From: Deltaproteobacteria bacterium
GTDB lineage: Bacteria > Myxococcota > Kuafuiibacteriia > Kuafuiibacteriales > Kuafuiibacteriaceae
NCBI GenBank assembly: GCA_040218735.1
Contig: JAVJQW010000019.1
Location: 1 to 64,000 of the forward strand
DNA: 64,000 bases
Reading direction: 5' to 3'
The position numbers were made by a program, and so were the translations under genes. Positions 1,203-27,359 of this stretch are shown here, piece by piece. How positions within the stretch are numbered: position 1 is the stretch's first letter; every line of letters starts with the position of its first letter. The notes under the pieces are model-generated. The model saw nothing but the letters and a program-made list of their open reading frames with translations. It was not told the origin of the DNA and did not search any database.

Positions 1203-2792
1203 GTGATCCCGCGCGAAAAAGACAACGTCGTCTACATCGACTCGGACAGCGCTCCCCGCATCATCCACTCGGGCGAGGACTTCCTCTACGAGCACCTGCC
1301 GATCGGCACGCGCGTCATCTACCCGAACCCGCCGATCAAGGGCCTCCCGCACCCCGACGCCGCGATCCGCTACGCGCTGAACCACCCGGAGGAGATGGAG
1401 CCGCTGTACGCGCTCCTCGAGCCGTCGATGCGGGTGTGCATCGTCATGGACGACATCTCGCTGCCGCTCCCGCCGATGCGCCTGCCGGACGTCCGCCAGC
1501 GTGTGCTGGAGATCGTGCTGCAGATCCTCGGCGACCACGGCGTCGACGACATCGACCTCCTCATCGCCAACGCGCTCCACCGCCGCATGACCGCGGACGA
1601 GATGAAGCGGATGGTCGGCTCCAAGATCTTCGAGCGCTTCTACCCGAAGCGCTTCATCAACCACGACGCCGAGGACCCCGAGGTGATGGTCACGCTCGGC
1701 GAGACGGAGCTCGGCGAGGTGGTGAAGACCCACCGGCTGTGCGCGGAGGCCGACCTCACGATCTACATCAACATCAACCTGGTCCCGATGGACGGCGGCC
1801 ACAAGTCGATGGGGATCGGGACGACGGACTACCAGGGGCTGAAGGCCCACCACAACCCGAAGACCATGCTCGAGGTCGACTCGTACATGGACCCGGAGAA
1901 CTCGGAGCTCGCGAACAGCGGCAACCGAATCGGCAAGATCCTCGACCAGCACGTCAAGGTCTTCCACATCGAGACGGCGCTCAACAACCGCATGTACGAC
2001 CGCTCGATGGAGTTCCTCGGCAAGAACGAGGACGACTTCACGGAGCTGGATCGCCTCGCGTTCCAGTCGCTGCGCTGGACGCTCAAGAAGCTCCCGCAGT
2101 CCGCGAAGCGCGCCATCTTCCAGAAGGTACCGGCGCCCTACGATCTCATCGCCGTGCACGCCGGCGCGACGGAGCCGGTGCACGACAAGATCCTCGAGAA
2201 GAACTACGAGCAGTACTGCGTCCCGGTGCGCGGGCAGGCCGACGTGCTCCTCATGGGCATCCCGTTCATCAGCCCGTACAACGTCAACGCGGTGTTGAAC
2301 CCGCTCCTCGTACAGGTCATGGCGCTCGGCTACCTGTACAACCTCTACCGCGGCGCGCCGCTGGTGAAGGACGGCGGCGTCATGATCATCGCGCACCCGC
2401 TGCACGACGACTTCGACCAGCGCTTCCACCCGAGCTACATCGAGTTCTTCCACCGCTGCCTCCCCGAGACGCGCGACAGCTTCGAGCTGCACAAGCGCTT
2501 CGAGAAGGAGTTCGCGACGAACCCGACGTACATCGAGATGTACCGCCGCGGGAACGCCTTCCACGGCGCCCACCCCTTCTACATGTGGTACTGGGGCGAC
2601 GCCGGTCGCAAGCGCGTCGGCAAGGTCATCTGCGTCGGCGCGAAGAACGAACACGTCGCGCGCATCCTCGGCTGGGAGACCGCCGACACCCTGACGGATG
2701 CGATCGAGCGCGCGAAGGACCTGACGCGCCCGAACCCGGACATCACGATGCTGCACATCCCGCCGATCCTGATGACCGACGTGACGAAGTAA
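1203..2792 (+). CDS. Lactate racemase (LarA/DUF2088) domain protein
   Basis: Motifs DDISLPLPP, ANALHRRMT, INHDAED and DGGHKS. GTG start at 1203; the upstream part of ORF 684 is Arg/Ala noise. Confidence 0.75.
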   Translation: MIPREKDNVVYIDSDSAPRIIHSGEDFLYEHLPIGTRVIYPNPPIKGLPHPDAAIRYALNHPEEMEPLYALLEPSMRVCIVMDDISLPLPPMRLPDVRQRVLEIVLQILGDHGVDDIDLLIANALHRRMTADEMKRMVGSKIFERFYPKRFINHDAEDPEVMVTLGETELGEVVKTHRLCAEADLTIYININLVPMDGGHKSMGIGTTDYQGLKAHHNPKTMLEVDSYMDPENSELANSGNRIGKILDQHVKVFHIETALNNRMYDRSMEFLGKNEDDFTELDRLAFQSLRWTLKKLPQSAKRAIFQKVPAPYDLIAVHAGATEPVHDKILEKNYEQYCVPVRGQADVLLMGIPFISPYNVNAVLNPLLVQVMALGYLYNLYRGAPLVKDGGVMIIAHPLHDDFDQRFHPSYIEFFHRCLPETRDSFELHKRFEKEFATNPTYIEMYRRGNAFHGAHPFYMWYWGDAGRKRVGKVICVGAKNEHVARILGWETADTLTDAIERAKDLTRPNPDITMLHIPPILMTDVTK

Positions 2793-2845
2793 CTTCGTCT
2801 GACAGATCCACCCGACAGCTTCGACGGGCCCGTCCGACGAAGCTG
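2783..2845 (+). terminator. Two adjacent hairpins at the larA-like stop codon
   Basis: GACGAAGT-A-ACTTCGTC (2783-2799) contains the TAA. CAGCTTCG...CGAAGCTG spans 2816-2845. No U-tract. Confidence 0.35.
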
Positions 2846-2974
2846 ACAGGTCCAGCCTTCGCCTCTGGTTTCCGCGAGTTACGTGCGCCCGCCGCGCGCG
2901 TGGCACGTGGGTTGCTCTTCCCTCGGGCAACCATGACGGCGCCCTGGCGCCATGCACCAAGAAGGGAACACACC

Positions 2975-3301
2975 ATGAAGAAGACGATCATCACCCTCGC
3001 CACCTCCTTCGCGCTCGGCTTCGCGCTCGCGGCCTGCGGCGGTCCGGACGAGGGGGTCGAGTACGACGAGACCGGCGCAGAGATCACCGTGCAGGTCGGC
3101 GGGAGTCAGTCCGATCGCGTCGAGGGCGGGCGCGAGCCGATCGCGCCGGTGGGGAACAACGGCTACTGCTGCAATACGAGCACCGGGCTCGTCTCCAAGA
3201 CGCAGTCGCACGGCTGCGACGCGAGCGACGAGACGTGGCACAGCACCTACGCCGACTGCGTGAACAACTCGATCTGCGGCTCCAACTGCAACATCAACTG
3301 A
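2975..3301 (+). CDS. Small Cys-rich lipoprotein
   Basis: Lipobox MKKTIITLATSFALGFALAA-C, AAGGGA RBS, 6 Cys in the C-terminal 45 aa. Confidence 0.8.
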   Translation: MKKTIITLATSFALGFALAACGGPDEGVEYDETGAEITVQVGGSQSDRVEGGREPIAPVGNNGYCCNTSTGLVSKTQSHGCDASDETWHSTYADCVNNSICGSNCNIN

Positions 3302-14397: not shown

Positions 14398-15543
14398 CTA
14401 GCGGTCACCCAAAAGCACGGCGAGCCGATCCACATCCTCAGAAGAATGCGCCGCCGAGAGCGTCACGCGCAGCCGCGAGGTCCCCTCGGGCACCGTCGGC
14501 GGCCGCACGCCCGCGACGAGGACGCCCGCTTCGAACAGACGCTCACGCTCGCGGATCGTCGCGTCCGGAGCGCCGATGATCACCGGGACGATGGGCCCGA
14601 CGAGCTCACGATCGAGGTGGACCGCGAGACGCGCGACGTTGGCGCCGAGGCGGGCGCGCAGCTCCGTACGATCGAGCCGAAGCGCCGCGCGGATCGCCGC
14701 GACGATCGGCAGTGGCATCGCCGTCGAGAACACGTACGCGCGCCCGCGGTTCCTCAGCAGTCGCACCGTCGCTTCGTCGGCGGCGACGAACCCACCGACC
14801 GCGCCGAACGCCTTGCTCGCGGTGCCGACGTGGACGTCCACCGCGACGCCCTGCGCCTCTGCGATCCCCGCGCCGCGTGCGCCGAACAGCAGCGTCGCGT
14901 GGCCTTCGTCGGTGACGAGCGTGAAGTCCCGGCGCGCCTTCAACGCCGCGATCGCGGCGAGCGGCGCGACGTCGCCGTCCATGCTGAACACCGTCTCGGT
15001 CACCACCAACAACCGCGCGCGGTCCGAGGCGAGGAGGCGCCGCTCGAGGTCTTCGACGTCGGCGTGCCGATAGATCTCTACCCGCGCCCCGCGACGCTTC
15101 GCGCGAGCGCACCCGTCGACGATCGACGCGTGGTTCAACGCATCGGAGAACACGTGGAGGTCCTCGCCCGCGAACGCGTCGAGCACCGCGAGGTTCGCGG
15201 CGTACCCGGTCGGCGTGAGCATCGCGGCGGGCTGCGCGACGAACGCCGCGAGCTCGGCTTCGAGCGCCTCGTGCTCGGTCGTGTGTCCGCAGATCAGCGC
15301 CGACGCACGCGGCCCGAGCCCGTGCTCGAGCACCGCCGCGGCGGCCGCTTCGCGGATCGCAGGGTGGGACGACAGGCCGAGGTAGTCGTTGCTCGCGAAC
15401 GACAGGACGCGTCGCCCGTCGACCACGAACGCCACGGGGCCGTCGGGCCGCACCGCGCGAACATCCCGCAGGTGCCCCGCGGCCTGCAGCTCGGCCAACG
15501 CCTCGTCGACGAAGCGCGGGCGCTGCCGAGCGGGGAGGCTCAC
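14398..15543 (-). CDS. bioF: 8-amino-7-oxononanoate synthase
   Basis: FASNDYLGL, DALNHASIVDG, ETVFSMDGD, GTASKAFG, RPPTVP; GTGA overlap with bioD. Confidence 0.95.
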   Translation of the reverse strand: MSLPARQRPRFVDEALAELQAAGHLRDVRAVRPDGPVAFVVDGRRVLSFASNDYLGLSSHPAIREAAAAAVLEHGLGPRASALICGHTTEHEALEAELAAFVAQPAAMLTPTGYAANLAVLDAFAGEDLHVFSDALNHASIVDGCARAKRRGARVEIYRHADVEDLERRLLASDRARLLVVTETVFSMDGDVAPLAAIAALKARRDFTLVTDEGHATLLFGARGAGIAEAQGVAVDVHVGTASKAFGAVGGFVAADEATVRLLRNRGRAYVFSTAMPLPIVAAIRAALRLDRTELRARLGANVARLAVHLDRELVGPIVPVIIGAPDATIRERERLFEAGVLVAGVRPPTVPEGTSRLRVTLSAAHSSEDVDRLAVLLGDR

Positions 15544-16178
15544 GCCTCCGCCATCCAGTGCGCGACGGCGCGCGCGTCGCCGTCGCGACGCACCGAGACC
15601 ATGGGCCGCGGGTCGAGGCGTCGGAGGACTTCGAGGTTCGTGTCGGTCGCGACGCTGTCCTCGTCGGTGTCGCTCAACACGACGCCGAGGGTGTTGATGC
15701 GCGCGGTGTCGAGCGCGCGCAGCGTCAGGAGCGTGTGGTTGATCGCCCCGAGCCGATTCGCCGCGACGACGATCGTCTTCGCGGAGAGCTGCACCGCGAG
15801 GTCGATCGCGTTGTACGTCCACGTCATCGGCGACAGCACGCCGCCCGCGCTCTCCACCACGACGATGTCGTGTTTCTCCTCGAGCGCGCGGATCGTCTGA
15901 CACCACCGCTCCGGATCGAGCGGGACGTCTTCTTGCTCCGCGGCGAGCGCGGGGGTGACCGGAGTCTTCAACCGCTGAAGCGCCGCGGTCGGCGCCGCCT
16001 GACGTGCGGCGTGCGCGAGCTGCGTCCCATCTTCGGGGAGCTCACTGCCGCACCCGGACTCGACCGGCTTCACGGCGACCACGTCGTGCCCGTCCGCGAC
16101 GAGCGCCTCCACCGCGCGGCACGCGACGTACGTCTTGCCGACCTCCGTGTCCGTTCCGATCACCAACACCACCGTCAT
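15540..16178 (-). CDS. bioD: Dethiobiotin synthase
   Basis: GTDTEVGKT, KPVESG, VESAGG, LGAINHTLLT. Confidence 0.95.
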   Translation of the reverse strand: MTVVLVIGTDTEVGKTYVACRAVEALVADGHDVVAVKPVESGCGSELPEDGTQLAHAARQAAPTAALQRLKTPVTPALAAEQEDVPLDPERWCQTIRALEEKHDIVVVESAGGVLSPMTWTYNAIDLAVQLSAKTIVVAANRLGAINHTLLTLRALDTARINTLGVVLSDTDEDSVATDTNLEVLRRLDPRPMVSVRRDGDARAVAHWMAEA

Positions 16179-16198
16179 GGCTCACCCCCGCGTCTGTT

Positions 16199-17836
16199 TC
16201 ACCCGCCATCTTCCACGGATTCGAGGCCGTACGCGATGGCGTCGACGATGCGGTCGATCTCCTCCGTGGAGACGGTGAGCGGCGGCATGATCACGAGCAC
16301 GTCCCCCAGCGGGCGCAGGAACACCCCCTTGTCGCGCGCGCGCAGACACACACGGATGCCGGTGCGGTCGTTGGGGTCGAAGGGCCCGTCGGGCCGCCCC
16401 AGCTCGATCCCCGCCGCGAGCCCGTAGCTCCGAACGTCCTGCACACCCGGCTTACCGGCGAGGCGACGCGCCGCGGACGCGAGGTGCTCGACCTTCGCGG
16501 GGAGCGCGTCGAGCACGCCCTCCTGCTCGAACACGTCGAGCGTCGCGAGCGCCGCAGCGCAGCCCAGCGCGTTCCCGGTGTACGTGTGGCCGTGGAAGAA
16601 CGTCTTCTTGTCGCCCGGCGGCGCGACGAACGCATCGAACACCGTCTGCGTCGTCAGCGTCGCCGCGAGCGGCAGGTAACCCGCGGTGAGTCCCTTCGCG
16701 ATGCAGAGGAAGTCGGGCGTAACGCCTTCGCGTTCGCAGCAGAACATCGCGCCGGAGCGCCCCATCCCGACCGCGACCTCGTCGAACACCACGAGCGTGC
16801 CGTGGTTCTTCGCGATCTGCACCGCTTCGGCGAGGAAGCCGTTCGGGAGCGGGAGGATGCCGCCGGCGCCCTGGAAGCCGGGCTCGATGACGAGCGCGCC
16901 GATCTCCCCTTCGTGACGATCGAACAGCTCCGCGAGCGCGGTGAGCGACGCTTCCGGCTGGCCGTACGGGGACGGCGCGCGGAGCACGTCGAAGAGCATC
17001 GGGTGGAAGATGCGGTGGAAGAGGTCGATGCCGCCGACCGACACCGCGCCGATCGTGTCGCCGTTGTATGCGGCGTCGAACGCGAGGAACCGCGTGCGCT
17101 TCGTTTCGCCGACCTGCTGCCAATACTGGTAGGTCATCTTCAGCGCGATCTCGACGGCGGTGCTGCCGTTGTCGGAGTAGAAGACCTTCGTCAGCGGATC
17201 GGGCGCGAGGTCCGCGAGGCGCTTCGCGAGCTGAACCGACGGCACCGTCGCGTGGCCGAGCAGCGTCGCGTGCGCGATGCGATCGAGCTGCGCGCGGATC
17301 GCGGCGTCGATCTTGTCGTGCCGGTGGCCGAAGGTGTTGCACCAGATCGAAGCGACACCATCGAGGTAGCGGTTGCCGTCGACGTCGATCAGGTCGTGGC
17401 CTTCGCCGCGTTCGATCAGGAGCGGCTGCTCGTCGCGGTAGACGGCGTGCGGCGTGAAGGGGTGCCAGAGGTGGGCGTCGTCCCAGGCCTCGAGTACCCG
17501 GCCGTCGACGCGGCTTCGCCGCGCCCCCTGGGCACCTCGTCGGCTTTCCCCCTCCCGGGGGGGCGCCTCCTCGAGTACCCGGCCGTCGACGCGGCTTCGC
17601 CGCGTCCCCTGGGCACCTCGTCGGCTTTCCCCCTCCCGGGGGGACGCCTCCTCGAGTACCCGGCCGTCGACGCGGCTTCGCCGCGTCCCCTGGGCACCTC
17701 GTCGGCTTTCCCCCTCCCGGGGGTGCGCCTCCTCGAGCACCCGGCCGTCGACGCGGCTTCGCCGCGTCCCCTGGGCACCTCGTCGGCTTTCCCCCTCCCG
17801 GGGGTGCGCCTCCTCGAGCTGCTTTTGGTCAGCCAT
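16199..17836 (-). CDS. bioA: DAPA aminotransferase with a 108-aa repeat insertion near the N-terminus
   Basis: LWHPFT, YLDGVASIW, DNGSTAVEIALK, DEVAVGMGRSG, AKGLTAGYLP, HGHTYTGN. Confidence 0.95.
   Translation of the reverse strand: MADQKQLEEAHPREGESRRGAQGTRRSRVDGRVLEEAHPREGESRRGAQGTRRSRVDGRVLEEASPREGESRRGAQGTRRSRVDGRVLEEAPPREGESRRGAQGARRSRVDGRVLEAWDDAHLWHPFTPHAVYRDEQPLLIERGEGHDLIDVDGNRYLDGVASIWCNTFGHRHDKIDAAIRAQLDRIAHATLLGHATVPSVQLAKRLADLAPDPLTKVFYSDNGSTAVEIALKMTYQYWQQVGETKRTRFLAFDAAYNGDTIGAVSVGGIDLFHRIFHPMLFDVLRAPSPYGQPEASLTALAELFDRHEGEIGALVIEPGFQGAGGILPLPNGFLAEAVQIAKNHGTLVVFDEVAVGMGRSGAMFCCEREGVTPDFLCIAKGLTAGYLPLAATLTTQTVFDAFVAPPGDKKTFFHGHTYTGNALGCAAALATLDVFEQEGVLDALPAKVEHLASAARRLAGKPGVQDVRSYGLAAGIELGRPDGPFDPNDRTGIRVCLRARDKGVFLRPLGDVLVIMPPLTVSTEEIDRIVDAIAYGLESVEDGG
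17488..17818. mobile_element. Four tandem 81-bp two-hairpin elements inserted in frame in bioA
   Basis: CTCGAG recurs at 17489, 17570, 17651, 17732 and 17813; flanking direct repeat CCTCGAG; unit peptide EAHPREGESRRGAQGTRRSRVDGRVLE. Confidence 0.92.
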
Positions 17837-18806
17837 CGCGTCGGCCTTCGAAGCCGCTCTCGCGGATCATTCGGAAGTCGGCGTCTTCGCCTTGGCCGAG
17901 GGTGGTGAGGTAGCCGTTGGCGAAGATCGAGTTGGCGACGTGCAGGGCGAGGGGCTGCAGGCTCCCGAGCGTGACCTCGCGACCGCCGGCGGCGCGGAGG
18001 TCCTGCGACGGGTGCACGAAGCGGAACATCGCGAGCGTGCGTAGCGCGTCGTTCGGGCTGAGGCGCTTCGCTTGTTGCAGCGGCGTACCAGGGCGCGGGT
18101 CGAGGAAGTTCACCGGCACCGATTCGACGCCGAGCTCCGAGAGCGCGAAGGCGAGCTCGACGCGGTCCTCGATCGTCTCGCCCATCCCGACGATTCCGCC
18201 GGAGCACGCTTCGAGGCCGGCGGCCCGCGCGGACTGAACGGTGGTGAGGCGGTCCTCGTACTGGTGGGTGCTGACGACCTCGCCGAAGAAGCGCTGCGAC
18301 GTCTCGAGGTTGTGGTTGTAACGGGTGACCCCCGCGTCGGCGAGCGCCTCGGCCTGGCCGGGTTTGAGCAGGCCCAGGGAAGTGCAGATGCCGAGCGTGG
18401 GAAATTCAGAGCGGATCGTTTGGACCGCGTCGCAGATTTCCCTCAGCTCCTTCGCCGAGGGCCCCCTTGTCGCGGTGACCATGCAATACGTGGACGCGCC
18501 GGCCCGTACCGCGCGACGCGCTGCCGTCACGAGGGTCTCTGCGGATTGCATTGCGTACGTGTCGACCTGCGTTTCGAATTTCGTCGACTGACTGCAGAAG
18601 CCACAGTCCTCGGGGCACGCGTCGCTCTTGGCGTTCTGGAGGACGTGCACCTTCACGAGCGTGCCGTGGTGGTGGCGCCGCACCCGCGACGCCGCGTGGA
18701 GCAACAGGAGCAGGTCTTCGTCGGGGCTCTTCAGCAGGTCGGTCGCTTCGGCGCGTGTGATTCGTTCTCCGCCGAGGACCCGTTCCGCGAGGGCTTCGTA
18801 CTGCAT
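17829..18806 (-). CDS. bioB: Biotin synthase
   Basis: Radical SAM motif CPEDCGFC, YNHNLETS, CSGGIVGMGE, SVPVNF, AGGRE, GYLTT. Confidence 0.96.
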   Translation of the reverse strand: MQYEALAERVLGGERITRAEATDLLKSPDEDLLLLLHAASRVRRHHHGTLVKVHVLQNAKSDACPEDCGFCSQSTKFETQVDTYAMQSAETLVTAARRAVRAGASTYCMVTATRGPSAKELREICDAVQTIRSEFPTLGICTSLGLLKPGQAEALADAGVTRYNHNLETSQRFFGEVVSTHQYEDRLTTVQSARAAGLEACSGGIVGMGETIEDRVELAFALSELGVESVPVNFLDPRPGTPLQQAKRLSPNDALRTLAMFRFVHPSQDLRAAGGREVTLGSLQPLALHVANSIFANGYLTTLGQGEDADFRMIRESGFEGRRDG

Positions 18807-18894
18807 CGCGGCCCCGTACTCCGGGGTGGGGACGACGGTCAACGCGAGTCCCGGCGCGAAAAATCATGAAGGTCGGGGCCGCGCCCGGCGACCC

Positions 18895-21920: not shown

Positions 21921-22691
21921 TCACGGAGCCCCGTGCGCCGCCGCCGTCCTCGCGCGCAGCTCGCGCAGCGCGGTCAGCTCCGCCTCCGTCGGCGCCGGTG
22001 ACACCGCGAGATCCGGAGCCACCGCCAACGGCCACGCCGTCTTCGCGCGGGCCTCCTCCACCGAGACGCCCGGGTGCAGGTGCGTCAGGACCAGCGCCCG
22101 GGTCTCGGCATCCGGCTGAAGGACTCCCAGGTCCGTGATCACCGCGCGCGGCCCGGCGCCGGTGACACCCAAGCCCTCACGAGAATCGCCACCGCGGTGA
22201 AAGCCCACCGTCGTCACGAAGTCCAAGCGCTCCACGAAGGTCCGCGGCGAGTGCTTCGTCACCAGCACTACCTCCTTCGCGTGCGCGGCGATCTCCGGCG
22301 CGCCGCCCGCGCCCGGCAGCCGCACGCGCGGCGCGCCATAGTCACCGATCACCGTCGTGTTGATGTTGGCGAATCGATCGATCTGCGCCGCGCCCAGGAA
22401 ACCGACGTCGATGCGTCCGCCCTGCAGCCAGTACCTGAAGACCTCGTGCGTCGGCACCACGGCGTCGGCGGTCTCCGCCAACTCACCGTCGCCGATCGAG
22501 AGCGGGAGCACCGAAGGCTTCGCGCCGATCGTGCCCGACTCGTAGATCAACACCACCTTCGGCGCGTGCGTCAGCCGCGCGAGGTTCGCCGCCGCGCTCG
22601 GTAGGCCGATCCCCACGAAACACACCGCGCCGTCCTTCAGGCGACGCGACGCCGCGATCGTCATCATCTCGTCGGGGGTGTACTCAGCCAT
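21921..22691 (-). CDS. pcaJ: 3-oxoadipate/glutaconate-type CoA-transferase subunit B
   Basis: FVGIGLPS, LIYESG, LGAAQIDRFANINTT, RLPGAGGAPEI, ITDLG. Confidence 0.88.
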   Translation of the reverse strand: MAEYTPDEMMTIAASRRLKDGAVCFVGIGLPSAAANLARLTHAPKVVLIYESGTIGAKPSVLPLSIGDGELAETADAVVPTHEVFRYWLQGGRIDVGFLGAAQIDRFANINTTVIGDYGAPRVRLPGAGGAPEIAAHAKEVVLVTKHSPRTFVERLDFVTTVGFHRGGDSREGLGVTGAGPRAVITDLGVLQPDAETRALVLTHLHPGVSVEEARAKTAWPLAVAPDLAVSPAPTEAELTALRELRARTAAAHGAP

Positions 22692-23532
22692 CCGCCAAAC
22701 TCCTCCGGTAGGCTTCGAAGTCCGCCGTGTTCAACACGTGGCGATCCATCCACGCCCGGAACCGATCCCGGTCGCGCGAGATCTCATCCCACGCCTGATA
22801 GAAACGGTTGTCCCGCTCCGAGTACCCGTGCGCGTACGACGGGTGCGCCCCGCCGGGCACCAGCGCCACCGCGTTCACCGTCCAGGACGGCAAGATCACT
22901 CCGGTCGGCACCGGGACGATTCGCTCCACGACCTCCTCCACCGTCACGATCACACGCCGCGCCGCGAGCGCCGCTTCCTTCTGCACGCCCGCGATGCCCC
23001 ACAGCTGCACGTTCCCCGCGAGGTCCGCCTGCTGGGCGTGGATGATCGTTACGTCAGGTCGAATCGAAGGCACCGCCGTCAGCACCTCGCCGGTGAACGG
23101 ACAGGTCACCGTCCGAATCCGATCGTTGTGCTTCGGCAGATCCGATCCAGCGTACCCGCGCAGCACCGCGAACGGCAGCCCGCTCGCGCCCGCGACGTAC
23201 GCGTTGGCGATGTCCGCGTGGCTCCGCTCCTCGATCTCGATCGGGTGCGGATGACCGCGCTCCACCGCGTCCCGCAGGCGGTGCAGCGATCCGACGCCGG
23301 GGTTGCCACCCCACGAGAACACCACGCGCTTCGCGGCGCCCATCCCGATCAGCTGGTCGTACACGACGTCCGGGGTCATCCGGTACAGCGTGAGGTCGCG
23401 CCGGCCCTGCCGGACGAGCTCGTGGCCCGCCGCGTGAGGGATGAGGTGCGTGAATCCTTCAAGCGCCACCGCGTCGCCGTCGTGGACGTGCTCCGCGATC
23501 GCCTCCTTCAGGGATATGTGTTTGTTCACCAT
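22684..23532 (-). CDS. pcaI: 3-oxoadipate/glutaconate-type CoA-transferase subunit A
   Basis: LEGFTHLIP, RMTPD, GGNPGVGSL, GAHPSYAHGY. Confidence 0.88.
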   Translation of the reverse strand: MVNKHISLKEAIAEHVHDGDAVALEGFTHLIPHAAGHELVRQGRRDLTLYRMTPDVVYDQLIGMGAAKRVVFSWGGNPGVGSLHRLRDAVERGHPHPIEIEERSHADIANAYVAGASGLPFAVLRGYAGSDLPKHNDRIRTVTCPFTGEVLTAVPSIRPDVTIIHAQQADLAGNVQLWGIAGVQKEAALAARRVIVTVEEVVERIVPVPTGVILPSWTVNAVALVPGGAHPSYAHGYSERDNRFYQAWDEISRDRDRFRAWMDRHVLNTADFEAYRRSLADG

Positions 23533-23557
23533 ACGAACACTTGTTTGTATTGTGAAC
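23523..23557. promoter_or_regulatory. Two PcaR/IclR-type boxes
   Basis: TGTTC-ACCATAC-GAACA overlaps the pcaI ATG, followed by GTTTGTATTGTGAAC; both resemble the GTTCG-N5-CGAAC IclR/PcaR dyad. Confidence 0.7.
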
Positions 23558-23579
23558 CCGAGCTAGAAAAGGTGTCAAC

Positions 23580-24332
23580 GTGAGCACGACCTTCGTCGCT
23601 GCCTTCGCCAAGGGCCTCCGCGTCATCGCAGCGTTCGACGCGCAACACCGCCGCATGACGCTCTCCGAGGTCGCCGAACGCACCGGCTTCGACCGCGCCG
23701 CCGCGCGGCGGTTCCTGCTGACGCTGGTCGAGGTCGGCTACGCGAAGCAGGACGGCAAACACTTCCAGCTCACGCCGAAGGTGCTTGAGCTCGGCTTCGC
23801 CTACCTCGCATCGCTCGGGCTCCCGTCCATCATGGAGCCGATACTCGAGCGCGTGAGCGACGCCCTCGACGAGTCGTCGAGCGTCGCCGTCCTGGACGAC
23901 CTCGACGTCGTCTACGTCGCGCGCGTGCAGACGCAGCGGATCATGTCGGTGGGGCTCGGCGTCGGTTCGCGGCTCCCGGCGGCCACCACTTCGATGGGAC
24001 GGGTGTTGCTCGCGCAGCTCGATCCGAAGGACCTCGCCGAGCGCCTCGGGCGCTGCCGACTCGAAGCCCACACGCCGCGCACGCTCACCAAGAAGCGCGA
24101 CCTCCTCCGCACCATCGAGCAGATCCGAAAGGACGGCTTCGCGGTGGTCGACCAGGAGCTCGAAGAGGGCCTACGGTCCATCGCGGTGCCGATCACGAAC
24201 CGCAGCGGGGAGGTCGTCGCCGCCATCAACGTGGGCACGCTGGCCAGCCGCGTCCCGAAGCAGACGCTGTTGAAGCACCATCTCGCCGTGCTCCGCGAGG
24301 CCGCTGCCTCCGCGCGCGAAGCGCTGGTCTGA
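23580..24332 (+). CDS. pcaR: IclR family regulator (PcaR/PobR-like)
   Basis: AKGLRVI, RAAARRFLLTL, GSRLPAATTSMGRVLLA, VDQELEEGLRSIAVP. Confidence 0.9.
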   Translation: MSTTFVAAFAKGLRVIAAFDAQHRRMTLSEVAERTGFDRAAARRFLLTLVEVGYAKQDGKHFQLTPKVLELGFAYLASLGLPSIMEPILERVSDALDESSSVAVLDDLDVVYVARVQTQRIMSVGLGVGSRLPAATTSMGRVLLAQLDPKDLAERLGRCRLEAHTPRTLTKKRDLLRTIEQIRKDGFAVVDQELEEGLRSIAVPITNRSGEVVAAINVGTLASRVPKQTLLKHHLAVLREAAASAREALV

Positions 24333-24341
24333 GGAGACACC

Positions 24342-27300
24342 ATGAGCCGAGTCGAATTCACCACGAACGCCGCCGCCGTCCTCGCCGAGGCTCTCGCCGA
24401 CCGATCGCGCGTCCTCCTGATCACGAACCCGTCCCGGCGCTTCGAAGAACAGATCCGCGCCGCGCTCGGGGACGCCACGATCGAGGTCTTCGACGGCGCC
24501 CGCGTGCACGTCCCCGCGGACGTGGTGCGCGCAGCGAAGGAGCGGCTCGACACCTTCCAACCGGACGCCGTCGTCACCCTCGGCGGGGGCGCGGCGACCG
24601 GCCTCGGGAAGATGCTGAAACGCGAGGCCTCGTTCTTCTTCGTCGCCGTCCCCACGACCTACGCCGGCTCCGAGATGACGAACATCTGGGGCACCACGGA
24701 CGGAGGGAACAAACAGACCGGCCGCGACGACGTCGTCCGGCCCGACCTCGTCGTCTACGACCCGGCGTTCACCGCCACGCTCCCGCCGAAGCTCACGATG
24801 CAGAGCCTCTTCAACGCGCTCGCACATCCGATCAGCGCGCTGGAGGCGGGCTCCGAAGATCCCGACGCGCTCCGCGCCATCCGCGAGATCGTCGACGCCG
24901 CCACGCAGCTCGCCGAGTCCCCGCGCCACGCCGGCGCACGCGCCGAAGCGCTCCGCGGCGCCTCCCTCGCCGGCGCCGTCCTCGACGCCGGGCAGCTCGG
25001 CGTACACCACAAACTCGCGCACTTCGTCGGAGGCCGCTTCGACCTCGATCACTCCGCGCTCCACGCCGTGCTCCTCGTGGGCACGGTCCACCGCATCCGC
25101 GCGACCCAGCCCGAGCTCTACGAGCGCATCCGCGACGCCGCGGGCCTCGTCGATCTCCCAGCGCAGCTCTTCGACCTCCTCCGACGCGTCGGCGCACCGA
25201 CCAGCCTCCGCACGCTCGGCGTCGCGTGGGACGATCTGCAAGCCAACTTGCAAGACGCCCCGCTCCCCGACGCCCTCGTGTTCGCGCACCAGGGGCGCCG
25301 CCCGCTCGCAACCACACGCTACGAAGTGGACGGCACGAGCATCGACGGAGACCTCCGCGAGGCCGACACCATCGTCGTCGGCGTCCACGGCCGCGGCGTC
25401 TGCGCCGACGCGATCGTCCGCGCCATCCGCGAGATCGGCGGCCACGAGATCGCCGTCCTCGCGCCGCAGGCCACCGACAACCAGTGGTACGGATGCGGCT
25501 ACCGCGAGCCCTACGGCGAAGCGACCGCCGCCGCCGTCGCCCGGATCGAAGCCGCGCTCCAGCACACTCAGGCCGTCAACCCGCGCGCACGGCGCGTGCT
25601 GTTCGGCTTCTCGCAGGGGGCCTGCCTCGCCCTCGAAGCCGCGGCCCGCACGGAGGTCCCGCTCGACGCCGTCATCGCGATCAACGGTGCGCGCATCGGT
25701 CCGCCCGAGGCCTACGCCGAATCCAAACGCGAGCACGAAGGCACCCCAGCGGCGAGGCCGCTGAGCGCCTCGGAGGGCACCCCATCTTCGGACCTCGCTC
25801 CGCTCGGGCCGAGGGCACGTTCCGTCGGACGCCCAGCGGCGAGGCCGCTGAGCGCCTCGGAGGGCACCCGCGTGCTGGTCGGCGTCGCGGAGGACGACCG
25901 CTGGGTCGCCACCGCCGACGTCGACGCCACCGCGACCTGGTTTTGCGGCGTCGGCGCCGACGTCACCGTGCTGCACGCCCCCGGCGACGCCCACGAGATC
26001 GATGCCCGCCAACGCATCGCCGCCGCCGAGCTCCTGACCGGGCGCTCGATTCGCGAAGGCCAGTCCGGCTTCGGCAACGCCCACGAAACCGAAGCGCTCC
26101 CCGGCGCCGTGCCGCGCCGAATGAACAGCCCGCGCCACGTCCGCTACGGCCTGTACGCCGAGCAGATCAACGGCACCGGCTTCGTCGCCGACCGCGAGCA
26201 CAACCTGAGGACGTGGACCTACCGCGTGCGCCCGACCGCGCAGCACACGCCGTTCGCGCCCCTCGACCACACCGGCGTCACCGCCGACTTCGCGACGCCC
26301 CCCGAGCCCAACCTCGCCGGCTGGGGCCCCGTCCCCGCGCCGAAGGAGGCGCGCGACTTCGTCGATGGGCTCATCACCTTCGGCGGCGCCGGGCACCCCT
26401 CACTCCGCCGCGGGTTCGCCGTGCACCTCTACGCCGCGAACCGGAGCATGAACCATCGCGCGTTCTCGAACGCGGACGGCGACCTGCTCATCGTCCCGCA
26501 GGAAGGTCGCCTCACGCTGCTCACGGAGCTCGGGGTGTTGGAGGCCCCGCCCGGGCACATCGCGATCGTGCCGCGCGGCATTCGGTTTTCGGTGCTCGTC
26601 GACGGGTTCGCGCGCGGGTACGTCGCGGAGGTCTACGGGCGCCACTTCGAGCTCCCACCGCGCGGCCCGGTCGGCGCCAACGGGCTGACGGACCCACGCC
26701 ACTTCAAAGCGCCGACGGCCTGGTACGAGGACCGCGTCGACCCCGGCTACCGCCTCGCGAACAAGTTCGGCGGGCGGCTCTTCGAAGCGACGCAGGACTA
26801 CGCGCCGCACGACGTCGTCGGGTGGCACGGCAACTACACGCCGTACGTCTACGACCTCCTCGACTTCAGCCCGGTGTCGGCGGCGCGCTTCGATCACCCC
26901 GACCCGTCGATCTTCACGGTGCTGACCTGCCCGCTCGACGAACCCGGCGCGCACACCCTCGACTTCGTGTTCTTCCCACCGCGATGGGACGTCAGCGAGG
27001 GCACGTTCCGCCCGCCGTTCTTCCACCGCAACGCGACGACCGAGATCAACGGCATCATCAAGGACCCCGGCGGCGACCGCCCGCCGTTCTACGCGGGCGG
27101 CGTCTTCGTCACGCCGAACATGACGCCGCACGGCGTCCGGAACCGCGCGGTGCACCGCATCCTCTCGACCGACGCCGAAGACGAACCGCGCCGCACCACG
27201 GAGGACTCGATGTGGTTCCAGTTCGAGTCGGCGCTGCCACTTCAGCTCACCCGCTGGGCGGCGAGCACCCGGACGCGCCTCGACGACTGGACGGACATGT

Positions 27301-27359
27301 GGGGCACCTACCGGACCTTCTTCAACGCAGGTGACCCCAACCGTCCGGGAGACGTTTGA
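24342..27359 (+). CDS. Three-domain fusion: maleylacetate reductase, phospholipase/carboxylesterase-type hydrolase, homogentisate 1,2-dioxygenase-like
   Basis: MAR: PTTYAGSEMT, NALAH, HHKLAH. Hydrolase: HGRG, GFSQGA, AHEI. HGD: LYAEQINGTGF, WHGNYTPY, DHPDPSIFTVLT, FHRN...E, MTPHG. One open 1005-aa frame with a GAGGAG RBS. Confidence 0.9.
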   Translation: MSRVEFTTNAAAVLAEALADRSRVLLITNPSRRFEEQIRAALGDATIEVFDGARVHVPADVVRAAKERLDTFQPDAVVTLGGGAATGLGKMLKREASFFFVAVPTTYAGSEMTNIWGTTDGGNKQTGRDDVVRPDLVVYDPAFTATLPPKLTMQSLFNALAHPISALEAGSEDPDALRAIREIVDAATQLAESPRHAGARAEALRGASLAGAVLDAGQLGVHHKLAHFVGGRFDLDHSALHAVLLVGTVHRIRATQPELYERIRDAAGLVDLPAQLFDLLRRVGAPTSLRTLGVAWDDLQANLQDAPLPDALVFAHQGRRPLATTRYEVDGTSIDGDLREADTIVVGVHGRGVCADAIVRAIREIGGHEIAVLAPQATDNQWYGCGYREPYGEATAAAVARIEAALQHTQAVNPRARRVLFGFSQGACLALEAAARTEVPLDAVIAINGARIGPPEAYAESKREHEGTPAARPLSASEGTPSSDLAPLGPRARSVGRPAARPLSASEGTRVLVGVAEDDRWVATADVDATATWFCGVGADVTVLHAPGDAHEIDARQRIAAAELLTGRSIREGQSGFGNAHETEALPGAVPRRMNSPRHVRYGLYAEQINGTGFVADREHNLRTWTYRVRPTAQHTPFAPLDHTGVTADFATPPEPNLAGWGPVPAPKEARDFVDGLITFGGAGHPSLRRGFAVHLYAANRSMNHRAFSNADGDLLIVPQEGRLTLLTELGVLEAPPGHIAIVPRGIRFSVLVDGFARGYVAEVYGRHFELPPRGPVGANGLTDPRHFKAPTAWYEDRVDPGYRLANKFGGRLFEATQDYAPHDVVGWHGNYTPYVYDLLDFSPVSAARFDHPDPSIFTVLTCPLDEPGAHTLDFVFFPPRWDVSEGTFRPPFFHRNATTEINGIIKDPGGDRPPFYAGGVFVTPNMTPHGVRNRAVHRILSTDAEDEPRRTTEDSMWFQFESALPLQLTRWAASTRTRLDDWTDMWGTYRTFFNAGDPNRPGDV
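25737..25869. mobile_element. In-frame hairpin-element insertion (36 + 87 bp) in the hydrolase domain
   Basis: GA(A/G)GGCACCC recurs at 25737, 25773 and 25860; hairpin CAGCGGC-GAG-GCCGCTG occurs twice; peptide PAARPLSASEGT is duplicated. Confidence 0.85.

Follow-up and report, generated by a model that had tools for sequence, protein, structure and literature searches.

The window analysed here is a 64,000-nucleotide stretch of contig JAVJQW010000019.1 (assembly GCA_040218735.1) from a Deltaproteobacteria bacterium of the phylum Myxococcota. At 24342..27359 on its forward strand lies a gene for a polypeptide of 1005 amino acids that carries, to judge from its residues, three intact catalytic domains: a maleylacetate reductase (MAR)-type reductase, an esterase and a dioxygenase of the homogentisate 1,2-dioxygenase (HGD) family. 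The three-domain fusion is one real, conserved gene. We propose, with what seems to us about an even chance of being right, that its product is a three-step enzyme converting a substituted hydroquinone, not homogentisate, to 3-oxoadipate, and a bacterial counterpart of the methoxyhydroquinone route. The best-supported reading of the gene is that its product converts a hydroquinone-type ring to 3-oxoadipate. This conversion by enzymes of these kinds appears so far to have been described only for separate fungal enzymes, and the fused bacterial form is probably new.

Three catalytic domains in one gene

The gene begins with an ATG codon preceded at 5 nt by a GGAGA motif, and its GC content by codon position (0.72/0.51/0.92) follows the same pattern as that of the adjacent genes. 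A chance open frame in GC-rich DNA is ruled out by this coding-like composition, which contrasts with the long open frame surrounding the canonical hmgA gene of another locus (L107), where codon-position GC is not coding-like. That the frame is single and has three recognisable domains had been proposed in a first-pass annotation made from the letters of the window, and Pfam and PDB matches agree on it.

Domain 1 (24342..25301, forward strand; residues 1 to about 320) has the Fe-ADH fold of the MAR type. Pfam places Fe-ADH at residues 3-141 (65 bits) and ADH_Fe_C at 173-306 (56 bits). The closest solved structures to residues 1-333 are the MARs 3jzd, 3hl0 and 3w5s (E 2e-53 to 1.5e-49), two of which, 3hl0 (E 1e-52) and 3w5s (E 1.5e-49), are named maleylacetate reductase; the first Fe-ADH structure that is not a MAR appears only at E 5.5e-17. 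Domain 2 (25302..26051, forward strand; residues about 321-570) is a carboxylesterase-type hydrolase of the Abhydrolase_2 family. The match to PF02230 (residues 400-454, 25.3 bits against a cut-off of 23) is marginal but still above threshold, and it is accompanied by a Ser-Asp-His triad (S424, D519, H551) with the serine in a G-x-S-x-G context (GFSQG, within GFSQGAC). The closest solved structure to residues 321-583 is 4h0c, a structural-genomics 'phospholipase/carboxylesterase' (E 2.3e-14). Domain 3 (26052..27359, forward strand; residues about 571-1005) belongs to the HGD family, with HgmA_N at 574-839 (351 bits), HgmA_C at 842-991 (128 bits) and human HGD (1ey2) as the closest solved structure to residues 560-1005 (E 1.8e-118). 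Its iron ligands are H895, E901 and H930. An AlphaFold2 model built on a 39-sequence alignment has an overall pLDDT of 87.9 and a pTM of 0.88. Both domain junctions are ordered in it (pLDDT 81-97), and the sole long disordered stretch comprises residues 465-504.

Conservation and distribution of the fusion

A word-indexed protein search returned 347 relatives, and the counts over 120 fused proteins given below refer to the best 120 of these. They are 881-1019 amino acids long and 49-69% identical to the window protein. According to precomputed Pfam lists, all of them contain Fe-ADH, ADH_Fe_C, HgmA_N and HgmA_C, and most contain Abhydrolase_2. Where source names are present they include Myxococcota, Sandaracinaceae and Nannocystaceae, all of the named ones being Myxococcota. 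Both junctions are ungapped and conserved across the homologues.

The catalytic residues predicted in the first-pass annotation (HGD iron ligands, Ser-Asp-His triad and MAR histidine motifs) are kept in 118-120 of the 120 fused homologues. In their alignment the iron ligands are found in 119 (H895), 119 (E901) and 118 (H930) proteins, and the triad in 119 (S424), 120 (D519) and 119 (H551). Histidines H223, H227, H237 and H241 of the C-terminal helical domain of the MAR, whose putative catalytic roles are assigned by alignment, occur in all 120.

An exhaustive search of representatives clustered at 50% identity yields about ten full-length proteins (949-1017 amino acids) and nine two-domain proteins (539-672 amino acids) that match residues 1 to about 470 only. 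Full-length loci come from named GTDB genomes (eleven, mostly titled with Myxococcota lineages, two with generic titles), from metagenomes (nine) and from related genomes. In total there are 24 distinct fused loci, no pair of which is at least 97% identical. Since the fusion recurs in these 24 loci and in all 120 listed proteins, a sequencing or assembly artefact at the junctions, which the first-pass annotation had named as a point to check, is ruled out. That annotation knew of no description of the architecture, and our literature searches likewise found no published description of the three-domain fusion. Database names for the proteins are automatic only ('homogentisate 1,2-dioxygenase', 'iron-containing alcohol dehydrogenase').

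A variant subfamily of HGD

The HGD domain scores 487.9 bits against the hmgA equivalog model TIGR01015, below the cut-off of 510.75, whereas canonical hmgA genes of the phylum reach 626-716 bits. Its identity to canonical HGDs from plants, animals and bacteria is 47-51%. In alignments to the human and Pseudomonas putida enzymes, the iron ligands and the counterpart of human His292 are retained. Two other active-site positions differ. The lid tyrosine (P. putida Tyr346, which aligns with human Tyr350) is replaced by glycine in the window protein, and the position of human His365 is occupied by threonine. Contact between Tyr346 and homogentisate is reported to fold the lid over the active site (PMC6337169, citing Jeoung 2013), and a review of fungal enzymes states that the lid tyrosine binds the carboxylate of homogentisate (PMC11634970).

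The combination of a residue other than tyrosine with threonine is found in 116 of the 120 fused proteins and that of tyrosine with histidine in none; in the remaining four these positions are gapped or hold other residues. Of the shorter HGDs, the 120 closest comprise 73 with tyrosine and histidine, 46 with the variant pattern and one with neither, a sample that is biased because it was picked as the best matches to the fused domain. The tyrosine-histidine set takes in plants, animals, early-diverging fungi and proteobacteria. A FastTree phylogeny of the HGD domains (240 sequences, 436 columns, seven fragments dropped) contains a single split between canonical and variant types with support of 0.98-0.995, taken from the unrooted tree because midpoint rooting is misleading. 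All 120 fused proteins fall inside a subclade of 130 tips with weak support (0.62), and 33 more standalone variant HGDs lie outside it. By sequence, the HGD domain is a member of a separate, well-supported subfamily, and it is unlikely to act on homogentisate. The HGD-like structure 9PZ4 likewise has no lid tyrosine. Human Tyr333 was considered as a further discriminating residue and dropped, the fused proteins having phenylalanine or tyrosine and canonical bacterial HGDs tryptophan at this position.

The fusion thus shares with the canonical HmgA-MaiA-FahA pathway (human HGD 1ey2, P. putida 3zds) the dioxygenase fold, the iron ligands and the His292 equivalent. It differs in scoring below the hmgA cut-off, in having neither the lid tyrosine nor His365, in the absence of an hppD, maiA or fahA partner and in being fused to a reductase and an esterase.

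Proposed reaction sequence

HGD-type cleavage of homogentisate produces maleylacetoacetate. Reasoning from structure, hydrolysis of this diketone would give maleate and acetoacetate, or acetylacrylate and malonate, but not maleylacetate, so that the hydrolysis to maleylacetate put forward in the first-pass annotation could not start from maleylacetoacetate. The hydrolase fits instead a ring cleavage that yields an ester (as from an alkoxy-hydroquinone), an acyl halide or a lactone. If the carbon beside the cleaved bond bears an oxygen-linked substituent, cleavage gives a maleylacetate ester, and an esterase and a MAR then make sense together.

In the proposed sequence, the C-terminal HGD-family domain would open the ring with Fe(II) and O2, breaking the bond between the carbon that bears the hydroxyl and the substituted carbon. 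With an alkoxy substituent on the ring the cleavage product would be an ester of maleylacetate. The N-terminal MAR-type domain would reduce its C=C bond with NAD(P)H, and the central Abhydrolase_2 esterase would remove the alcohol, either before or after the reduction, to give 3-oxoadipate, the logical product of the predicted activities. The leading candidate substrate is methoxyhydroquinone, with dimethoxy- or halo-hydroquinones as alternatives, the hydroquinone probably being plant- or lignin-derived. The adjacent CoA-transferase may then pass on the 3-oxoadipate under the control of the PcaR-type regulator; this part may be played elsewhere, in other fusion-bearing genomes, by a beta-keto-acid cleavage enzyme or an acyl-CoA ligase.

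A methoxylated substrate and 3-oxoadipate as the product are favoured because a route with the same kinds of enzyme is reported in Aspergillus niger (PMC8336404). MhdA of this fungus carries an HGD annotation, shares 50.8% identity with HmgA and turns methoxyhydroquinone into the methyl ester of maleylacetate, 4-hydroxy-6-methoxy-6-oxohexa-2,4-dienoate. For reduction of the MhdA product a MAR homologue (candidate NRRL3_4956) is proposed there, and the carboxylesterase OmeA is held to yield 3-oxoadipate, deletion of omeA causing 4-oxo-monomethyl adipate to build up (PMC8336404). Like the fusion, the fungal route as reported places an HGD-family dioxygenase that is not for homogentisate, a MAR-like reductase and a carboxylesterase in series towards 3-oxoadipate, a likeness at the level of enzyme kinds; unlike the fusion, it is made up of separate fungal genes and not of one bacterial polypeptide.

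Two HGD-like enzymes of Phanerochaete chrysosporium, PcMHQD1 and PcMHQD2, are reported to prefer methoxyhydroquinone (PMC11634970). In PcMHQD2 the lid tyrosine is replaced by phenylalanine and homogentisate is not converted, so that this enzyme resembles the fusion in its want of a lid tyrosine. These methoxy- and dimethoxy-hydroquinone dioxygenases (Kato 2024, as cited in PMC11634970 and PMC12420386) share with the fusion the HGD family, the kept iron ligands and an altered lid, but they are standalone, PcMHQD1 has the tyrosine, and excerpts of the two papers report no change of histidine to threonine such as that of the fusion. For cleavage of methoxyhydroquinone by HGD-family proteins, the part of a cross-kingdom survey used here gives fungal reference enzymes only (PMC12420386).

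The suggestion that a hydroquinone-type ring is taken to 3-oxoadipate stands in outline, but the homogentisate chemistry that the first-pass annotation implied with it probably does not, given a variant HGD and the absence of HPPD, FahA and MaiA. Its picture of a protein 'joining HmgA and MAR pathways' is likewise less apt, because homogentisate is an unlikely substrate of the dioxygenase, than that of a fused bacterial form of a methoxyhydroquinone-type route known unfused in fungi.

The esterase-MAR pair outside the fusion

Tight unfused operons combine a two-domain dioxygenase of the VOC (glyoxalase) fold, about 320 amino acids long, with an Abhydrolase_2 esterase and a MAR. They occur in a Burkholderia sp. 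(L033), in Paraburkholderia silviterrae (L083) and in metagenome-assembled genomes of Gemmatimonadaceae (L051) and Acidobacteria (L058). One metagenome locus (L141) has a VOC dioxygenase, an esterase and a CoA-transferase, and another (L159) a VOC dioxygenase with an esterase/MAR-family open reading frame about 1.5 kb away. The Burkholderia operon also contains an FAD_binding_3 monooxygenase, a second hydrolase, an aldehyde dehydrogenase and transporters. The MARs of the unfused operons are 39-42% identical to the fused MAR domain. These operons and the two related metagenome loci resemble the fusion in placing an esterase of the same family and a MAR beside a ring-cleavage dioxygenase; they differ in the fold of that dioxygenase, which is VOC-type (PcpA/LinE/MhqO-like) and not cupin/HGD, and in having separate genes. 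Our literature searches found no characterisation of VOC-esterase-MAR operons.

Two-domain MAR-esterase fusions devoid of an HGD domain also exist, as at L119 (positions 1423-3264) and in the nine representatives of 539-672 amino acids mentioned above (P0256, P0257, P0261, P0267, P0279, P0317, P0372, P0375 and P0377). They may be an intermediate or an alternative architecture. Because the esterase and the MAR form operons with VOC-type dioxygenases, the combination of dioxygenase, esterase and MAR seems to be a functional unit that recurs with an exchangeable dioxygenase fold.

The flanks of the Paraburkholderia operon (genes for a LysR regulator, an acyl-CoA ligase and citryl-CoA-lyase-like proteins) are common to three fused loci (L016, L018 and L020). 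A pair formed by an acyl-CoA ligase and a short citrate-synthase-like 'citryl-CoA lyase' (NF004867/NF004868) is found at L083 6549-8902, L020 5922-8236, L018 15836-18183 and L016 432-4634, and is thereby common to the unfused Paraburkholderia operon and the fused Myxococcota loci.

Genomic neighbourhood

In the window the fused gene follows, as the first-pass annotation had it, a pcaR gene (23580..24332, forward strand), which ends 9 nt before it. The product is an IclR regulator of the PcaR/PcaU/PobR family (TIGR02431, 328.7 against a cut-off of 284.75; Pfam IclR_C and HTH_IclR). Divergent from it on the reverse strand are genes for two CoA-transferase subunits of the glutaconate-CoA-transferase type, subunit A at 22684..23532 (Pfam CoA_trans; PDB 1poi_A, E 4.2e-37) and subunit B at 21921..22691 (Pfam CoA_trans; PDB 1poi_B, E 1.2e-39). 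The divergent pair had been noted before and is there, but its assignment to the pcaIJ type fails: subunit A reaches 32.7 bits on the pcaI/scoA model TIGR02429 (cut-off 128.5) and subunit B 52.6 bits on the pcaJ/scoB model TIGR02428 (cut-off 243.6), with 1poi as the nearest structure. By NCBIfam score the pair does not belong to the PcaIJ family.

The 47-bp AT-rich intergenic gap between the CoA-transferase and pcaR genes (23533..23579) is a candidate operator of the IclR type, containing a palindrome and, as consensus matches, two promoter-like sites. The AT-rich stretch 23518-23579 holds the palindrome GTGTTTGTTCACCATACGAACAC and two sigma-70-like matches. Open reading frames just downstream of the fusion have no Pfam match. 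The rest of the 64,000-nt window contains no further aromatic catabolism; it has biotin synthesis genes, PFOR, PlsX and others. The biotin-synthesis cluster (15540-18842, reverse strand) comprises a BioD-like AAA_26 protein, a class-III aminotransferase and a radical-SAM BioB-like protein. Its aminotransferase frame is 545 amino acids long, and the Pfam domain begins only at residue 135.

Within the fused gene, an in-frame insert of 41 codons (25743..25865, forward strand) lies in an esterase-domain loop. It is found in this genome only, the window protein being the single one of the 120 fused homologues to have it, and the model shows it as disordered (pLDDT about 30). A perfect direct repeat of 38 nt (25745-25782 and 25832-25869) overlaps the insert; its second copy extends 4 nt beyond the insert, and the repeat has no further copy in the genome. 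The repeat came from a separate repeat search, Tandem Repeats Finder reporting none on the insert. The insert is probably a recent local duplication.

The PcaR and CoA-transferase context, which the first-pass annotation had noted, is present in the window but is not general. CoA-transferase pairs adjoin three of the 24 distinct fused loci, namely the window and, directly downstream of the fusion, L017 and L113. A BKACE (beta-keto-acid cleavage enzyme, PF05853) gene lies directly upstream of the fusion in three loci (L018, L112 and L124, the last cut by a contig end), and a citryl-CoA-lyase-like gene is found in three. The BKACE and PcaR neighbours point to 3-oxoadipate.

Alternative readings

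The source genome (11.6 Mb, 96.5% complete) has the fusion as its only HGD-family gene. The first-pass annotation saw no maleylacetoacetate isomerase or fumarylacetoacetase gene in the window and asked about an hmgA-maiA-fahA set elsewhere; there is none. The whole genome contains no match to fahA, no gene over the maiA cut-off of 171 (generic glutathione S-transferases (GSTs) only, at most 71.5 bits) and nothing above a 23-bit match to HPPD. There is one weak match to an intradiol dioxygenase (37 bits), and the classical upper branches feeding 3-oxoadipate therefore appear to be missing, which counts in favour of the proposed hydroquinone route. No thiolase of the genome exceeds the pcaF cut-off (best 544.7 against 597).

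A sole HGD-family gene without fahA and maiA would also suit a glutathione-independent homogentisate pathway on one polypeptide, replacing MaiA and FahA. Here the HGD domain would form maleylacetoacetate, the MAR-type domain would reduce it to succinylacetoacetate, and the Abhydrolase_2 domain would cleave a C-C bond to release succinate and acetoacetate, the latter activated by the neighbouring CoA-transferase. We regard this, the main rival reading, as unlikely, at perhaps one chance in several. The identity of the domain to canonical HGDs speaks for it, as does the absence of fahA (TIGR01266) from all 20 genomes of the same family, six of which have the fusion and one a canonical hmgA. This absence is weak evidence, however, because a genome of the phylum with canonical hmgA (G110) also lacks a TIGR01266 match. 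Within that family, HPPD-type matches occur in five of the six fusion genomes and in six of the 14 others; two of these fusion genomes pair their HPPD-like gene with a distinct HGD-like open reading frame of very divergent sequence.

The source genome itself is without HPPD, and HPPD is encoded in none of 25 fused loci searched with tblastn (438,630 bases; positive controls found), whereas hppD immediately precedes canonical hmgA in one of the three canonical loci examined (L102). The missing lid tyrosine and replaced His365 of 116 of the 120 fused proteins also argue against homogentisate, as do the BKACE and PcaR neighbours. The Abhydrolase_2 family consists of esterases and thioesterases, and we know of no C-C hydrolase in it. 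The same esterase-MAR pair adjoins VOC-type dioxygenases, and VOC-type hydroquinone dioxygenases are not, to our knowledge, users of homogentisate.

HPPD-like genes (257-283 bits) also adjoin very divergent HGD-like open reading frames (410-636 amino acids, 25-39 bits on the hmgA model) in the related genomes G010 (C84), G015 (C11), G018 (C16), G014 (C152) and G005 (C5), a pairing of its own. In G003 (C21; L106 8606-10935) an HPPD gene of 414 bits stands beside an HGD-like frame of 388 amino acids and 85 bits.

Several observations weigh against a reaction from a substituted hydroquinone to 3-oxoadipate, and the genome counts among them favour the homogentisate reading. Among 401 sampled genomes of the phylum, 85 have canonical hmgA (one of these matches being in an unpublished genome, G181), eight a fusion-type gene and nine a standalone variant, the last all in the genus g108. 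Canonical hmgA and the fusion occur together in none of the 401, which would also fit the fusion as the homogentisate dioxygenase of its organism, and seven of the eight fusion genomes have an HPPD-type match (E <= 1e-10), five of them over the HPPD cut-off. The standalone variant-type HGDs of g108 (Myxococcaceae; L097-L100) score 392-422 bits, an example being L097 8984-10378 on the reverse strand. The three g108 genomes examined have HPPD (356 bits) and no canonical hmgA, and no MAR homologue is found in g108 genomes at E <= 1e-20, so the variant-type HGD may act on homogentisate in this genus. The lid tyrosine is an imperfect marker because PcMHQD1 keeps it and is still reported to prefer methoxyhydroquinone (PMC11634970). 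The esterases of the unfused operons are only 28-34% identical to the fused one. Gene contexts vary, with CoA-transferase and BKACE each adjoining the fusion in only three loci, and the commonest neighbours are without an assigned pathway role: an acyl-CoA ligase (five fused loci: L016, L018, L020, L092 and L116), a GST (about six of the 24) and a pirin (three). No enzyme forming methoxyhydroquinone was found beside any fusion.

The neighbours of the standalone variant HGDs in g108 are a VWA protein, PEPCK and a histidine kinase, which give no clue to the substrate.

A halo-hydroquinone as the substrate is improbable. Cleavage of a chloro- or bromo-hydroquinone would give an acyl halide and then a dienelactone-like ester, which the hydrolase would convert to maleylacetate and the MAR to 3-oxoadipate, on the model of dienelactone hydrolase and MAR in chlorocatechol pathways. 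The lower pathways for chlorocatechol and chlorohydroquinone (dienelactone hydrolase with MAR; LinE/PcpA with LinF) indeed resemble the fusion in leading through a hydrolase and then a MAR to 3-oxoadipate, but their hydrolase is of the DLH family, their dioxygenases are others and their genes are unfused. Several fused homologues also match the dienelactone hydrolase family PF01738; in the window protein the match is to Abhydrolase_2, with none to DLH. In the Pcp and Lin pathways chlorohydroquinones are dehalogenated by GSTs, which lends some interest to the GST genes near the fusion, but no halogen-specific gene was identified. The acyl-halide product of halo-hydroquinone cleavage is reported to hydrolyse non-enzymatically, and we know of no HGD-family enzyme that cleaves halo-hydroquinones. 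PcpA/LinE-type VOC dioxygenases are reported to accompany MAR in known pathways (PMC3204407).

Slightly less probable still is an esterase acting before ring cleavage to free a hydroquinone from an aryl ester (for example one formed by Baeyer-Villiger oxidation of an acetophenone, as with HapB in the 4-hydroxyacetophenone pathway), with the dioxygenase and MAR acting afterwards: the Hap pathway is a hydroquinone pathway with an upstream aryl esterase, and the Burkholderia cluster L033 combines a monooxygenase, two hydrolases, an aldehyde dehydrogenase and a MAR. Against it, cleavage of plain hydroquinone gives a semialdehyde, on which an aldehyde dehydrogenase must act before MAR can. The fusion contains no such enzyme, none of this family was recovered among the neighbours shared between fused loci (single-locus neighbours being mostly left unannotated), and no fusion was seen to have a Baeyer-Villiger monooxygenase next to it.

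Significance

The fusion hints at the function of the uncharacterised esterase-MAR pairs that stand beside VOC-type hydroquinone dioxygenases in several phyla. Should its substrate prove to be homogentisate, it would represent a new catabolic pathway for tyrosine and homogentisate that needs no glutathione, isomerase or fumarylacetoacetase. If it acts as we propose on a substituted hydroquinone, it would be the first HGD-family enzyme in bacteria to act on something other than homogentisate, and its signature (no lid tyrosine, threonine for His365 and an 'RWD' motif) could be used to correct automatic names. It would also be a compact engineering part for turning lignin aromatics into 3-oxoadipate. 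For the Myxococcota that carry it, the gene would provide a demethylation-free bacterial route for methoxylated lignin-derived hydroquinones, credited so far to fungi, in a single polypeptide.

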